From: an uncultured Pseudomonadales bacterium
GTDB taxonomy: Bacteria; Patescibacteriota; Microgenomatia; UBA1400; UBA1449
Direction of reading: 5' to 3'
Assembly: GCA_964386355.1 (NCBI GenBank)
Contig: CAYLQQ010000002.1
Coordinates: 45,374-109,373, forward strand
DNA length: 64,000 bases
Shown: piece after piece, positions 22,690 through 50,687 of the stretch
Numbering within the stretch: the first letter of the stretch is position 1
Layout of the letters: each line of letters begins with the position of its first letter
Made by a program: the position numbers and the translations under genes
Notes under the pieces: model-generated
Database searches by the model: none
The model's input: only the letters and a program-made list of their open reading frames with translations
Told to the model about the DNA's origin: nothing

Positions 22690-22756
22690 GATTTATAGGT
22701 CATACATAGAAAGTATGTATACATAAAGACCGCAATCTCTTATACAATAGCAAAAG

Positions 22757-40910: not shown

Positions 40911-41291
40911 TTATTGTCTTGGTCTTGAAGGTATTGACATACCTGTAGGAAATGTAGGTGTGGGTCTTATTGACGATCCCGGTAAGCCACCCCTACTATC
41001 GCGAGTACTTCCCAATCTTTCCCTGCTTGGTTTGGTACAAGCGCTAGATGGCCACCAATCAGGAGCGTCACTTGCATCGCAAACATCATCAGGATCTTCC
41101 TGATGACAGCCTGCCATTTGCATCCATTGACATGGCATATCAGGTAGGCCTTGAGCCATAAATTGAGCAATTACGTTTTCTGAAGGCTTCCAATTCACCG
41201 GTCCTGTTGGCTCTATTGCATATTTGTACCAATCATATGCCCACCAAAAGGTATGAAACATATCTTGAAGTATGTATTTTGCCTCTTCCAT
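40911..41291 (-). CDS. Hypothetical Trp/Cys-rich protein; possibly the C-terminal part of a split gene with 41431..42267
   Basis: The same frame stays open for 47 more codons upstream of the first ATG, back to a stop inside the (ATTT)3 tract. That stretch contains no ATG, GTG or TTG. Confidence 0.4.
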   Translation of the reverse strand: MEEAKYILQDMFHTFWWAYDWYKYAIEPTGPVNWKPSENVIAQFMAQGLPDMPCQWMQMAGCHQEDPDDVCDASDAPDWWPSSACTKPSRERLGSTRDSRGGLPGSSIRPTPTFPTGMSIPSRPRQ

Positions 41292-46345: not shown

Positions 46346-47008
46346 TTATTTGCATAGAACAAACATATTTGATAGGTTTCTGATCAGCTTTATATCAGAA
46401 AAATGTTTTTCAAGCTGTTTGATCAGCTTGGGAACCTTTTGTTTGTATTGGTCAAAGAAGAGATGATTAACCAGTAATTGACCTTGGGGATTAATAGTGT
46501 GTCTTATTTTATCTAGAAATTGTGTTTGATATAATTGCTTAGGTATCTCATGACCCTGGTACAGATCTACCAAGACTAGATCGTATTTCTGATTACAGTT
46601 TTGTATCCAGTGAAAACAGTTAGATTGAATTAGTTGTAAGGAAACAGAATTATTATTACGTACAGTTCTAAAATATTTTTCATAGATTACAATCATGACC
46701 GGATCTATTTCAATGCCTGTGATTTGGGCATTGGGGAATTTTTTAAATAGGAGTTGGGCAGCGGTACCACCGCCAAAGCCGAGGATCAATATTTGTAAGG
46801 GTACATCATGATGCACCCCTACTGATTTCAATGGTTTCTGCCATAGGTCTTTGATAATACTTCCGGATTGCAGCAGGCCTCCAGCATAAATTTTCCGCTG
46901 CCCAAATTGTTCGACAACCATAACCTCCCCGTTATACTGAGAATTGTATGTTTCTATTGTGTTTGGGAATAAAAATTTAGATGCTTTACTTAGAACCATA
47001 GTACTCAT
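46346..47008 (-). CDS. Spermidine-synthase-like class I methyltransferase-fold protein
   Basis: ILILGFGGGTAAQLL (motif I), ITGIEIDPVMI and LVDLYQG, as in spermine/spermidine synthase-like proteins. Confidence 0.6.
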   Translation of the reverse strand: MSTMVLSKASKFLFPNTIETYNSQYNGEVMVVEQFGQRKIYAGGLLQSGSIIKDLWQKPLKSVGVHHDVPLQILILGFGGGTAAQLLFKKFPNAQITGIEIDPVMIVIYEKYFRTVRNNNSVSLQLIQSNCFHWIQNCNQKYDLVLVDLYQGHEIPKQLYQTQFLDKIRHTINPQGQLLVNHLFFDQYKQKVPKLIKQLEKHFSDIKLIRNLSNMFVLCK

Positions 47009-47022
47009 GATACAATAAATTT

Positions 47023-47412
47023 ATGAAAAGTGTTGTTGTCTGTGCTTCAAAAAAATACAAAGATGAAGTAGCCCAGTTTTGCGACAAGCTGAGAAAGCTG
47101 GGTGTTCTGGTATTTGAACCGAGTATAAGCAAGCCAATATTTGAAAATCAGCAATTTGATACTGAACACCTGACAAAAGTAATATTTAAAGGATTAACTC
47201 TCGAACATTTTGACTGGATTAGAAAAGCAGATGTGTGTTACATATTCAATAAAAATGGGTATGTAGGAACAAGTGTCAGTTTAGAAATGGGTTATGCAAC
47301 AGCCTTGGGTAAACCAATATTTGCTCTAGAACCCAAAACAGGAGATCCATGCAGGGATTCATTGATTGATAAAGTTATACCTTCTGCTCAGGAACTTGTT
47401 AAAATTCTTTGA
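47023..47412 (+). CDS. Nucleoside 2-deoxyribosyltransferase-like (Rossmann-like) small protein
   Basis: The VVVCASKKY... start and the block ...ADVCYIFNKNGYVGTSVSLEMGYATALGKPIFAL resemble the NDT/DUF4406-like fold family. The assignment is tentative. Confidence 0.35.
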   Translation: MKSVVVCASKKYKDEVAQFCDKLRKLGVLVFEPSISKPIFENQQFDTEHLTKVIFKGLTLEHFDWIRKADVCYIFNKNGYVGTSVSLEMGYATALGKPIFALEPKTGDPCRDSLIDKVIPSAQELVKIL

Positions 47413-47431
47413 TCTAGAGACTTTAGTTATC

Positions 47432-47776
47432 TGTCATGCTGAACTGGTTTCAGCATCCCCATAAAGATTCATTAGATTATTAAAATTTGGATTGACTGAT
47501 TTAATTAGGTTTATTTTCCATTGCCTATGCCACTTTTTTAGCTGCTTTTCTCTGGCAATAGCTTGAGTAATATTTTCAAATACTTCAAAATAGAACAGTT
47601 TATCCACGTTATATTTGCTTGTGAAAGAATGAGTAATTTTATGCTCGTGTTGCCATTCTCTTTTTATTAAATTACTGGTTACACCAATATAGAAAACGGT
47701 GTTGTGCTTATTGGTAAGAATATATATGTAACCACTCATAGACATAAGGGGATCCTGAAACAAGTTCAGGATGACA
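47432..47776. mobile_element. Compact GIY-YIG cassette bounded by 29-bp imperfect terminal inverted repeats (each itself a hairpin)
   Basis: Left repeat at 47432..47460: tgtcATGCTGAACTGGTTTCAGCATcccc. Reverse complement of 47748..47776: tgtcATCCTGAACTTGTTTCAGGATcccc. They match at 26 of 29 positions, and two of the three differences are compensatory within the 8-bp stem. Confidence 0.5.
47434..47745 (-). CDS. GIY-YIG nuclease superfamily protein (UPF0213-like)
   Basis: GYIYILTNKHNTVFYIGVTSNLIKREWQH...AIAREKQLKKW is the GIY-YIG core. The start was moved to MSMSGYIY, because the upstream part of the tracked ORF overlaps serS. Confidence 0.8.
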   Translation of the reverse strand: MSMSGYIYILTNKHNTVFYIGVTSNLIKREWQHEHKITHSFTSKYNVDKLFYFEVFENITQAIAREKQLKKWHRQWKINLIKSVNPNFNNLMNLYGDAETSSA

Positions 47777-47779
47777 CAT

Positions 47780-49048
47780 TTATCTAATGTTCTCTTTACC
47801 CATGTACGATTGTAGTACTTTTGGTACATATACCGATCCATCTGCTTGTTGGAAATTTTCCAAAACTGCAATTAGAATCCTCGGGCTGGCAATAGCAGTA
47901 TTATTGAGCATGTGGACAAATTTTATTTGGCCATCCTTGGCTTGGTACTTAACATTTGCTCGTCTTGATTGGTACTCACCCATCATTGAGCAAGACATGG
48001 TTTCACCATACTCCTGCCTTCCGGGCATCCAAGTTTCGATATCATACTTTTTGACTTGAGGCTCACCCATATCGCCAGTACACATAAGTAACACGTGATA
48101 TGGGAGACCTAATTCCTGAAGAATTTCTTCTGAATATGATCTTAGATTCTCATGCCATTTCTTTGATTCTTCCCAGTCATTTTTACATATAATAACCTGT
48201 TCAACCTTAGCAAATTCATGAATGCGGTAAATTCCTTTTGTATCTTTGCCGTAACTACCGATCTCCCGCCTGAAGCACTGGCTATATCCTGCATACAACT
48301 TTGGCAGTTCTTTTTCTGGTAAAGTTTCATCCATGTGGTATGACACAAGCGGAACTTCGGCTGTACCTGCCAGGTAGCGGGCATCCTGATTGTCTTTATC
48401 ATCATATGTTTTGTAGACATCTTCTTTACCCCAAGGGAAATGGGCAGTGTTGTAAAACGGACGTTCGAGTAAAACAGTGGGAGGAATTACCGGAGTGAAG
48501 CCTTTTTCTATTAATTTTTTTAGTGCAAATTGCAGAATTGCCAAGTGAAGTAGGGCACCATCTCCCTTTAGGTAATAACCTCGAAATCCTGCAACCTTTA
48601 CACCCCTGTCCATGTCAAGTATTCCTAGGTCTAAACCCAGTTGGATATGGTCTTTAGGCTGGAAATCGAACTTGGTAGGCTCCCCCCACTTTGAGATCTC
48701 AATGTTACCGCTGCTGTCTTTACCAATGGGGACTTCTGGAGCAGGGACGTTTGGAATAGTGAACATCAATCTATCATATTCCTGTTCAACCTCTCTCAGT
48801 TGCGGTTCAAGGGCTGCTAATTGGTCTTTGAGTGCTTTGCCCTGGTCAATTATCTCCTGACTTGGTTTGCCAAACACCCCTTTCATCAGGTCATTGCGCT
48901 GCTTGCGAATTTCTTCAGTTTGCTTAATTAAGCTGCGTCGTTTCTCATCAGCTGCTAATAGTTCGTCTATGGTATCTTTGACACCTTTACTTGCAGCAGC
49001 CTGCTTGACCAAGTCTTTGTTGTCACGGATGAATTGGATATCTAGCAT
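47780..49048 (-). CDS. serS: Seryl-tRNA synthetase
   Basis: N-terminal coiled-coil arm (MLDIQFIRDN...), motif 2 FRREIGSYGKDTKGIYRIHEF and motif 3 region LNNTAIASPRILIAVLEN. Confidence 0.93.
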   Translation of the reverse strand: MLDIQFIRDNKDLVKQAAASKGVKDTIDELLAADEKRRSLIKQTEEIRKQRNDLMKGVFGKPSQEIIDQGKALKDQLAALEPQLREVEQEYDRLMFTIPNVPAPEVPIGKDSSGNIEISKWGEPTKFDFQPKDHIQLGLDLGILDMDRGVKVAGFRGYYLKGDGALLHLAILQFALKKLIEKGFTPVIPPTVLLERPFYNTAHFPWGKEDVYKTYDDKDNQDARYLAGTAEVPLVSYHMDETLPEKELPKLYAGYSQCFRREIGSYGKDTKGIYRIHEFAKVEQVIICKNDWEESKKWHENLRSYSEEILQELGLPYHVLLMCTGDMGEPQVKKYDIETWMPGRQEYGETMSCSMMGEYQSRRANVKYQAKDGQIKFVHMLNNTAIASPRILIAVLENFQQADGSVYVPKVLQSYMGKENIR

Positions 49049-49659: not shown

Positions 49660-50121
49660 TCACCTCAAGATTTGTAGTGCCTGGGAAATGATATGCTGAG
49701 TATTTGGAAGACAATCGAGATGAGCAATTTCTGTTTCCGTAAACCATCGCATCTCACCTGTTTCATGGTCCGGATCACTATTTATTGGGTGTTGATCTCC
49801 AATTTCTACAATAAACGCAAGCAGTAATAGATGTACGTTTGAAGAGAACGTATCGCCGTCTTTTCTCCACGTATTTGTAACTACTATTGGGTGAGGATAT
49901 CTAATATCTGGGGTTACAGATAATTCTTCTTGAAACTCTCTAATAATCGTTTGTTGCGGAGTTTCTCCAAACTCCATTTCCCCTCCGGATAATTGCCATT
50001 TAAGGTGGATGCTAAGTCTATTGGGAGCTACTCTTTGGGTTAGAAAAAATTCGTACTCTTGCCCCTTTTTACGTATCGGCAATCCAAGGACTCCAACGAT
50101 AATCTTTTCAGAATTTTTCAT
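49660..50121 (-). CDS. Nudix hydrolase
   Basis: Nudix box GGEMEFGETPQQTIIREFQEELSV. Confidence 0.88.
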   Translation of the reverse strand: MKNSEKIIVGVLGLPIRKKGQEYEFFLTQRVAPNRLSIHLKWQLSGGEMEFGETPQQTIIREFQEELSVTPDIRYPHPIVVTNTWRKDGDTFSSNVHLLLLAFIVEIGDQHPINSDPDHETGEMRWFTETEIAHLDCLPNTQHIISQALQILR

Positions 50122-50123
50122 AA

Positions 50124-50687
50124 TTATAAACCTAATTCATCAGATATTCCCTGCATGGCTTTCAGACATATCCCAACAAAATCGGGGAATTTGATGCCAA
50201 GTTCCGGTTCGCATCGCTCTACATTTTCCCTTATTACACCTTTGGCAAAATCTCTTTTCGGCCATTTTTTGAGCACATTCTCTACTGTAGTATCTGCCAA
50301 TTTTTTAGAAGGCCTCATAAGAGTTACGGCGATGATAAAACCAGTCAGCTCATCGCAGCAGTAAAGTGACCAGTCCATTTTTGATTCCGGTTTGGGAAGA
50401 TCTTCTTTCCAGCCCCAGCCATGGGCTTTGACAGCTTGGATTATTTTAGGATCATATCCATCTTTTTCAAGCCATTCAAACACAAGAGAAGGATGTTTTT
50501 CTGGCTCGTTTTTTAGTATTTCGTAATCTGCATCATGCACGAGGCCGGCAATTTCCCACATCTGCTTATCTTCACCAAAATGCTTAGCCAACACTTTCAT
50601 ACAAGCTGCAACTGCCAGCATGTGTTTAATAAGGTTGGGGTTTTTGGCATTTTGATTAACGAGTGATAGAGCGTTTGTTTTATTCAT
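50124..50687 (-). CDS. HD-domain phosphohydrolase
   Basis: H...HD pattern (IKHMLAVAACM...AGLVHDADYE) and ~190 aa length. Confidence 0.75.
   Translation of the reverse strand: MNKTNALSLVNQNAKNPNLIKHMLAVAACMKVLAKHFGEDKQMWEIAGLVHDADYEILKNEPEKHPSLVFEWLEKDGYDPKIIQAVKAHGWGWKEDLPKPESKMDWSLYCCDELTGFIIAVTLMRPSKKLADTTVENVLKKWPKRDFAKGVIRENVERCEPELGIKFPDFVGICLKAMQGISDELGL

Follow-up and report, generated by a model that had tools for sequence, protein, structure and literature searches.

The 64-kb window (the whole stretch of 64,000 nucleotides analysed here, from contig CAYLQQ010000002.1) contains, directly behind the seryl-tRNA synthetase gene serS, a small locus that is very probably an SRM-ssn-SRM unit, in which a gene for an Ssn-family GIY-YIG nuclease lies between two inverted, outward-facing copies of its cognate hairpin motif. 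From the comparisons described below, the hairpins are best read as recognition sites of the neighbouring nuclease. The feature is real, and the Ssn system to which it is assigned is already named and characterised (Chenal et al. 2025, PMC11893778) and is not a new kind of element; what accompanies it here is a version of the motif that lies outside the published search pattern, together with comparative evidence of gain and loss. The original prediction for this DNA correctly described a compact GIY-YIG gene unit bounded by structured inverted repeats but missed the known Ssn nuclease/SRM system (PMC11893778). The parts of the unit are as follows.

47429..47779, no strand assigned: whole SRM-ssn-SRM unit, with the extended 35-nt inverted repeat as its bounds and the GTCAT ends facing outward.
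47434..47745, − strand: ssn gene, 103 aa plus stop, single GIY-YIG domain (MSMSGYIYILTN...GDAETSSA*).
47748..47776, − strand: upstream SRM hairpin, on the ssn sense strand, TGTCAT-CCTGAA / CTTGT / TTCAGG-ATC-CCC.
47432..47460, + strand: downstream SRM hairpin, on the strand opposite ssn, TGTCAT-GCTGAA / CTGGT / TTCAGC-ATC-CCC.

The two 29-nt repeats, TGTCATGCTGAACTGGTTTCAGCATCCCC at 47432–47460 (+) and TGTCATCCTGAACTTGTTTCAGGATCCCC as the reverse complement of 47748–47776, are identical at 26 of 29 positions, as first noticed, and an inverted-repeat search extends the pair to 35 nt at 86% (47429–47463 and 47745–47779). Of the three differences, two amount to a compensatory G-C to C-G exchange within the stem and one affects the loop. 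Each copy folds as a hairpin with an 8-bp stem, as described earlier, and a 5-nt loop. In the upstream copy (− strand) 47772–47765 pairs with 47759–47752 around a loop at 47764–47760, with the conserved GTC at 47775–47773 and the conserved post-stem C at 47751; in the downstream copy (+ strand) 47436–47443 pairs with 47449–47456. Both copies have the form TGTC-AT(G/C)CTGAA-N5-TTCAG(C/G)AT-C, with GTC 5′ and C 3′ of the palindrome, in a frame of YGTCAT, an 8-bp stem starting at AT, a 5-nt loop, the returning stem and ATC. A search for 29-mers with up to three mismatches finds only these two gene-flanking copies in the window, with 0 expected (100 shuffles). The unit has 32.5% GC compared to 39.2% for the window, placing it within the lowest 3.6% of 345-nt windows, and its sequence is identical in contigs of two sequencing runs. 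Two other GTCAT sites with 7-bp perfect hairpins are present in the window (41088–41107, − strand, TGTCATCAGGAAGATCCTGATGATG; 22699–22720, + strand, GGTCATACATAGAAAGTATGTATACAT); these probably arose by chance, having stems with no relation to the repeat and, in the first case, lying far from any GIY-YIG gene.

The ssn gene and its flanking repeats are closely interlocked. The family-consistent start of the open reading frame (ORF) is the ATG at 47745 (MSMSGY...), which lies 2 nt beyond the inner border of the upstream 29-mer and not within that repeat as had been proposed; the downstream repeat encodes the final seven codons (DAETSSA), as stated earlier, plus the stop. The TGA stop (47434–47436) is the reverse complement of the TCA within the conserved GTCAT. 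Tails of the D[AP]ETSS[AG] type encoded by a hairpin occur in 37 of the 120 closest homologs, and stopping at the ATGAC of the downstream hairpin is thus a recurrent feature. Within its 3′ arm, the upstream hairpin contains an AGGA 7 nt ahead of the ssn ATG that could, speculatively, serve as the ssn ribosome-binding site, perhaps masked in the mRNA. The database gene model for ssn (131 aa; 47434–47871, − strand) is probably too long at its start, since it starts before the family-consistent ATG, includes the translated upstream hairpin (…VILNLFQDPL…) and shares ~50 nt with the 3′ end of serS.

The predicted protein matches the GIY-YIG family (Pfam PF01541, E 2e-16) over residues 7–81 of the 105-aa stretch submitted, which starts two codons before the ATG. 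It shares 44% identity over 89 aa (E 5e-28) with the 94-aa SsnA ortholog of N. gonorrhoeae (CP119140.1) and 64% identity with Wolbachia WP_182366808.1, these being an ortholog and a homolog of, rather than exactly, the N. meningitidis 8013 and W. pipientis proteins that were assayed. Residues Y8, Y19 and E66 align with SsnA Y6, Y17 and E64 at a constant offset of +2, in columns that are invariant or at least 90% conserved among 103 homologs; the SsnA mutants Y6A, Y17A and E64A have lost cutting altogether (PMC11893778). All 15 of the columns invariant in the 103 homologs are retained in the window protein, including those of the C-terminal REKQLKxWxRxWKxxLI region. An AlphaFold2 model (pLDDT 85) has one compact beta-beta-alpha-alpha-beta-alpha domain with the hairpin-encoded tail disordered, and a fold search with it gives GIY-YIG domains as the top solved-structure matches, although these are weak (best 1zg2, E 1.8e-3, TM 0.42–0.46). 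A sequence search of the Protein Data Bank with the window protein gave no match, and no Ssn structure is present there.

Ssn proteins are single-domain GIY-YIG enzymes of ~94 aa (CDD cd10448) that bind hairpin repeats only as single-stranded DNA and cut a few nucleotides upstream of them (PMC11893778). The repeats, for which SRM is the general term, are represented in Neisseria by the NTS, CGTCATTCCCGCGMAVGCGGGAATCYRG (CGTCATTCCCGCG...GCGGGAATC), and by NTSvar, CGTCATACTCGGG-N5-CCCGAGTATC; at least one flanking repeat is present at 71% of ssn genes, and 42% have repeats on both sides (PMC11893778). In mutagenesis of the SRM, cutting depended most on the three bases 5′ of the palindrome, and binding on the C that directly follows it (PMC11893778). 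Both copies in the window retain these critical positions, and their frame is that of NTS and NTSvar. The motif is a proven single-stranded-DNA target of the Neisseria and Wolbachia SsnA enzymes, neither of which cuts double-stranded DNA, and the Neisseria enzyme is inactive on RNA (PMC11893778). Pathogenic Neisseria carry hundreds of repeats per genome, and the only demonstrated biological role of the system is in Neisseria, where it restricts incoming single-stranded DNA in transformation (PMC11893778). Its authors point to a resemblance to insertion sequences and propose domestication (PMC11893778); a literature search found no later paper testing Ssn mobility.

The layout at the Wolbachia gene (WP_182366808.1) corresponds to that in the window, with a forward repeat upstream and a reverse repeat right after the stop (CGTCATCCCGCTAC...GTTAGCGGGATC). 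At the N. gonorrhoeae ssnA locus (NZ_CP119140.1, 1881675–1883141) there are at least eight NTS copies within 1.5 kb, and the closest NTS downstream shares the strand of the gene, whereas the layout in the window is inverted.

By homology with the Neisseria and Wolbachia enzymes, the window protein would bind its hairpins only in single-stranded DNA, as may be exposed in replication, repair or DNA uptake, and would recognise the stem sequence together with the GTC just 5′ and the C just 3′ of the stem. It is predicted to nick a few nucleotides 5′ of GTCAT, at ~47777–47785 on the − strand, in or beside the serS stop codon, and at ~47423–47431 on the + strand at the other end. More speculatively, the enzyme might restrict incoming motif-bearing single-stranded DNA on behalf of its host, or might move its own unit.

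The published SRM pattern, HGTCWYN(0-2)YYVSBRHN(0-5)WNVSBRGN(0-2)RNCYNB, is a hand-made search tool derived from 29 genomes (PMC11893778). It fits 35 of the 104 hairpins beside the closest ssn relatives and misses 69, and with its hand-made origin this is why we treat it as too narrow and not as defining the family. A structure-based hairpin detector was used in its place on a sample of 80 metagenome loci encoding ssn relatives (L123–L202). A hairpin lies upstream on the sense strand in 42 of these loci and on the opposite strand in six; downstream, 44 loci have one on the antisense strand and 12 on the sense strand, and both hairpins face outward in 34. Hairpins are concentrated at the genes, with a density of 1.33/kb at up to 500 bp from the gene and 0.11/kb beyond. 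A flank-free search for perfect hairpins (stem of at least 8 bp) gave 107 near ssn relatives, of which 91 have GTC on the 5′ side, and all 91 of these have C after the stem.

The stems beside ssn relatives come in several versions, including TCCCG, CCTGA/GCTGA, GCCGA and TGCGG, and the two flanking copies at one locus mostly share a version (exceptions include L127, L164 and L179). CTGA-type stems account for 38 of the 104 gene-adjacent hairpins. From these comparisons we regard the CTGAA stem as an AT-richer version of the SRM that is found beside about one third of the closest ssn relatives. The same palindromes do accompany small GIY-YIG genes in other phyla, as the original prediction had put forward. 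The published association figures are probably underestimates, given that the CTGAA version falls beyond the published pattern.

Several points count against interpreting the locus as an Ssn nuclease gene with its own recognition sites. The published degenerate pattern has 0 matches in the window, and neither copy fits it because the stem is CTGAA instead of CCCGC. Changing the sequence while keeping the hairpin abolishes the activity of Neisseria SsnA (PMC11893778), and we infer the specificity of the window nuclease for the CTGAA version only from co-occurrence. Folding of the individual hairpins is modest, at about −9 to −10.7 kcal/mol with z about −1 to −2 relative to shuffles. The window has no motif copy beyond the two that flank the gene, so there is no sign of dispersed target sites within it. 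At the serS flank considered below, the choice between gain and repeated loss was made by parsimony and not from a tree.

The position of the unit, between the 3′ ends of two convergent genes, is one where terminators are expected, and one hairpin begins 4 nt after the serS stop. The spacing agrees with the original description, the 3 nt between the serS TAA (47782–47780) and the upstream repeat being ATG on the − strand (47779–47777). It is nevertheless very unlikely that the hairpins are ordinary terminators or RNA-stabilising stem-loops unrelated to the nuclease. No T/U run follows either stem (CCCC follows instead) and a terminator scan of 46900–48000 predicts 0 sites, and for these two reasons the terminator account, which the original prediction had itself raised as a challenge, was rejected. 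Furthermore, an Rfam search of 47200–48000 matched no RNA family, the GTC and C flanks are conserved in an orientation-specific manner across phyla and track ssn genes, and the same motif is the established single-stranded-DNA target of enzymes of which that of Neisseria does not act on RNA (PMC11893778).

The original prediction noted that GIY-YIG nucleases include homing endonucleases. A free-standing enzyme of this kind would cut a double-stranded target near serS and copy itself into empty alleles, and the catalytic domain, the presence/absence polymorphism and a weak match to the group I intron endonuclease model TIGR01453 are compatible with this; the TIGR01453 match, the only one in NCBIfam, is below threshold (18 bits vs. 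a cut-off of 56). However, the protein is a single domain of only 103 aa with no DNA-binding module, there is no intron or intein context, and a collection of 50,697 phage records contains no homolog. The close Neisseria and Wolbachia homologs leave double-stranded DNA uncut (PMC11893778), and related units are found at unrelated sites and not at one conserved target. We consider this origin extremely improbable, and homing endonucleases of the I-TevI and Seg types were rejected for lack of a linked DNA-binding domain and of an intron or phage context.

The motif is dispersed well beyond ssn genes in other genomes. A scan of species-representative genomes (GTDB) with GTCATNCTGAA-N5-TTCAGNATC gave at least 120 stretches containing at least 158 motifs, with ~17 expected by chance (an estimate). 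Among the matches listed, to which the counts in this and the next paragraph refer, the carriers are Patescibacteria, Bacteroidota, Sphingomonadaceae, Treponema, Gastranaerophilales, Nitrospirota, Elusimicrobiota and one metagenome-assembled genome (MAG) labelled Nanoarchaeota. The two free stem positions form Watson-Crick pairs in 150 of 158 copies (G-C in 80, C-G in 53 and T-A in 17), and this covariation indicates that the hairpin structure is under selection, as had been argued from the compensatory swap in the window. The search for further copies of the repeat, which the original prediction proposed, gave no others in the 64-kb window and scattered, mostly gene-less copies in other phyla.

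An ssn-like ORF is present in 4 of the 120 stretches, most copies being gene-less. Motif pairs are outward-facing, with 6–91-nt spacers, in 68 cases, inward-facing in 14 and tandem in 15, and the outward-facing polarity of the dispersed pairs is that of the gene unit in the window. The gene-less outward-facing pairs look like miniature versions of the SRM-ssn-SRM unit. Spacers of 14 nt and 39 nt recur among the pairs (L003–L122; e.g. L014 6714–6801, L042 5163–5251, L070 1489–1677). The contig of the MAG labelled Nanoarchaeota (JAHIPG010000372.1) has the CTGAA motif at 1511–1582 and 2672–2727, including an outward-facing pair, reflecting either archaeal carriage or a binning error.

The genomic neighbourhood of the unit in the window includes the following features.

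47780..49048, − strand: serS (seryl-tRNA synthetase), identified by Pfam Seryl_tRNA_N and tRNA-synt_2b.
47023..47412, + strand: gene of 129 aa that runs convergently to serS and has its stop codon 19 nt short of the unit; similarity to nucleoside 2-deoxyribosyltransferase is weak.
50121..50124, − strand: junction between an HD-domain gene and a NUDIX gene with a 2-nt gap, empty in the window and holding a different GIY-YIG unit in L205–L207.

Going by its SerS homologs, the organism belongs with Beckwithbacteria-like candidate-phylum bacteria. The serS 3′ flank was compared to that of seven related contigs, representing six distinct loci, with SerS proteins 71–85% identical to that of the window.

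L203, SerS 85%: serS is followed by a 180-aa gene.
L204, SerS 84%: serS is followed after 95 bp by a methyltransferase gene.
L205, L206 and L207, SerS 83–84%: no spacer, the 129-aa gene and serS overlapping by 9 nt (empty site).
L208, SerS 71%: no ssn behind serS.
L209, SerS 73%: no ssn behind serS.

There is no ssn gene, CTGAA-type hairpin or GTCATNCTGAA half-site 3′ of serS in any of these related loci. Empty sites, which the original prediction proposed to look for, are therefore present at all six distinct loci, and the situation that would have spoken against it, with all relatives carrying the gene at this place, clearly does not apply. Since every related genome in the sample lacks the unit at this position, the parsimonious reading is that the lineage of the window most likely acquired it at the 3′ end of serS. 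The exact insertion boundaries are blurred, as the gene ends of the relatives have diverged and the two genes overlap in three of the contigs. The 129-aa gene is itself variable, being present in the window and L205–L207, absent in L204, L208 and L209, while L203 has the 180-aa gene in its place, which makes the 3′ flank of serS a hot spot of gene-content change.

The converse arrangement is found 1.5 kb away in L205–L207 (three contigs, two distinct loci), where a 96-aa GIY-YIG gene lies between the HD-domain and NUDIX genes. Its product is 46% identical to the window protein, with a degenerate W/N motif, and the outer inverted repeats of this unit (L205 130–603, likewise in L206 and L207), GTCATCCTGAACC, represent no more than the 5′ half of the motif. 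Further in, another inverted repeat, GTTGTGAAGGATC / GATCCTTCACAAC, closely encloses the ORF, as if the hairpin loops had expanded to 65–70 nt. The protein lacks the family-invariant W, K and N residues (REKYLKHKRRDYKLYLI), and may for this reason be decaying.

Whether ssn units move is a question on which these reciprocal filled and empty sites in close candidate-phylum genomes bear. The original prediction suggested that this may be a minimal selfish or mobile unit, or a domesticated remnant, and the account corresponding to the first of these would make the unit an autonomous mobile element, with Ssn as a transposase or nickase acting on the outward hairpin ends and the gene-less pairs as non-autonomous derivatives, as in REPINs with RAYT or in miniature inverted-repeat transposable elements (MITEs) with insertion sequences. 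Presence/absence at the serS flank stands as evidence in its favour, the site being filled in the window and empty in six distinct loci, two of which (three contigs) have a different ssn unit at the HD/NUDIX junction. The terminal inverted repeats and low GC of the unit, the mostly gene-less occurrence of the CTGAA motif and the preponderance of outward-facing pairs among the dispersed copies point the same way, and the authors of the Ssn paper raised the same hypothesis (PMC11893778).

Other features of the data do not fit such movement. Target-site duplications, a check named in the original prediction, are not found above the shuffled null in 118 units and pairs (offsets 0–4, lengths 2–5), and none is evident at the window unit; of the hallmarks of classical insertion sequences and MITEs the inverted repeats are present and the target-site duplication was not found. 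The 64-kb window contains no second copy of the unit or of the motif. The two predicted nicks would fall on different strands, which sets them apart from the 'peel and paste' of one strand in IS200/IS605, and the HUH/Y1 (TnpA-type) transposase characteristic of IS200/IS605 and RAYT-REP systems is absent, the only ORF in the unit being that of the GIY-YIG protein. To our knowledge, no strand-transfer activity has been described for GIY-YIG enzymes of this type. The units in the window and in the related genomes are only 46% identical at the protein level and are therefore not transposition products of one another; this degree of similarity fits independent acquisition or recombination and not within-genome transposition. 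The phage collection gave no matches, and the 33 matching records in a plasmid collection are almost all predicted to be non-mobilizable, many being megabase-sized replicons. These plasmid matches include two 2.17-Mb N. gonorrhoeae chromosomes filed as plasmids, one of which gave the SsnA ortholog. Weighing both sides, autonomous mobility of the unit is possible but doubtful.

The broader proposal that SRM-ssn-SRM units constitute a distinct class of mobile elements, driven by a GIY-YIG nuclease acting on single-stranded hairpin ends, with the gene-less outward-facing pairs as non-autonomous derivatives and with a spread that takes in bacteria, candidate phyla among them, and possibly also DPANN archaea and leaves no target-site duplications, is likewise put forward only tentatively, as something that may but probably does not hold. 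If it were true, the reciprocal pattern of occupied and empty sites at serS and HD/NUDIX in Beckwithbacteria-like genomes would count among the earliest comparative evidence for movement of this kind. For the SRM-ssn-SRM unit as such, the consequence is one of annotation, in that the gene should be labelled an Ssn-family single-stranded-DNA nuclease instead of a generic "GIY-YIG nuclease" or a homing endonuclease. The pairing of a CTGAA site with its enzyme would also be a candidate new specificity for single-stranded-DNA tools.

Of the known systems that resemble the unit, the REP/REPIN sequences with RAYT, which are related to IS200/IS605, similarly have a small nuclease gene between short hairpins that the enzyme is thought to recognise as single-stranded DNA, and their repeats are also dispersed as gene-less inverted pairs without target-site duplications. 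The window enzyme differs in being of the GIY-YIG and not the HUH/Y1 type, its predicted cuts are on opposite strands, and any transposition of the unit is hypothetical. The neisserial dRS3 repeats and intergenic mosaic elements are also similar, in that same-frame hairpins bracket short variable segments, as in the gene-less SRM pairs of other phyla; however, dRS3 is Neisseria-specific and has a GC-rich ATTCCC-N8-GGGAAT core, of which there is none in the window.

The UPF0213/YhbQ proteins (e.g. BH0048 of Bacillus halodurans, PDB 1zg2) share with the window protein a stand-alone GIY-YIG domain of ~95–100 aa and provide its best solved-structure match. Yet 1zg2 is only 23% identical to the window protein and scores weakly as a fold match (E 1.8e-3), whereas the window protein has the Ssn-specific C-terminal REKQLKxWxRxWKxxLI motif. 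We know of no hairpin-repeat association described for UPF0213.

The Ssn family is the system that the unit resembles most closely, with a single-domain GIY-YIG protein of ~94–105 aa that is 44–64% identical to members and has the same catalytic Tyr/Tyr/Glu, and with 25–30-nt hairpin repeats on both sides in the frame YGTCAT, stem, 4–5-nt loop, stem and ATC. The repeats are inverted and outward-facing, as they are at the Wolbachia gene and in 34 of the 80 metagenome relatives. The unit in the window is distinguished from the described members by its CTGAA-type stem in place of the CCCGC type, unmatched by the published pattern, by a host from a candidate phylum (Patescibacteria, Beckwithbacteria-like), and by having two repeat copies in 64 kb, both flanking the gene, as opposed to hundreds per genome in pathogenic Neisseria. 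It is further set apart by the placement of the downstream repeat within the coding sequence, where the repeat gives the gene its stop codon.

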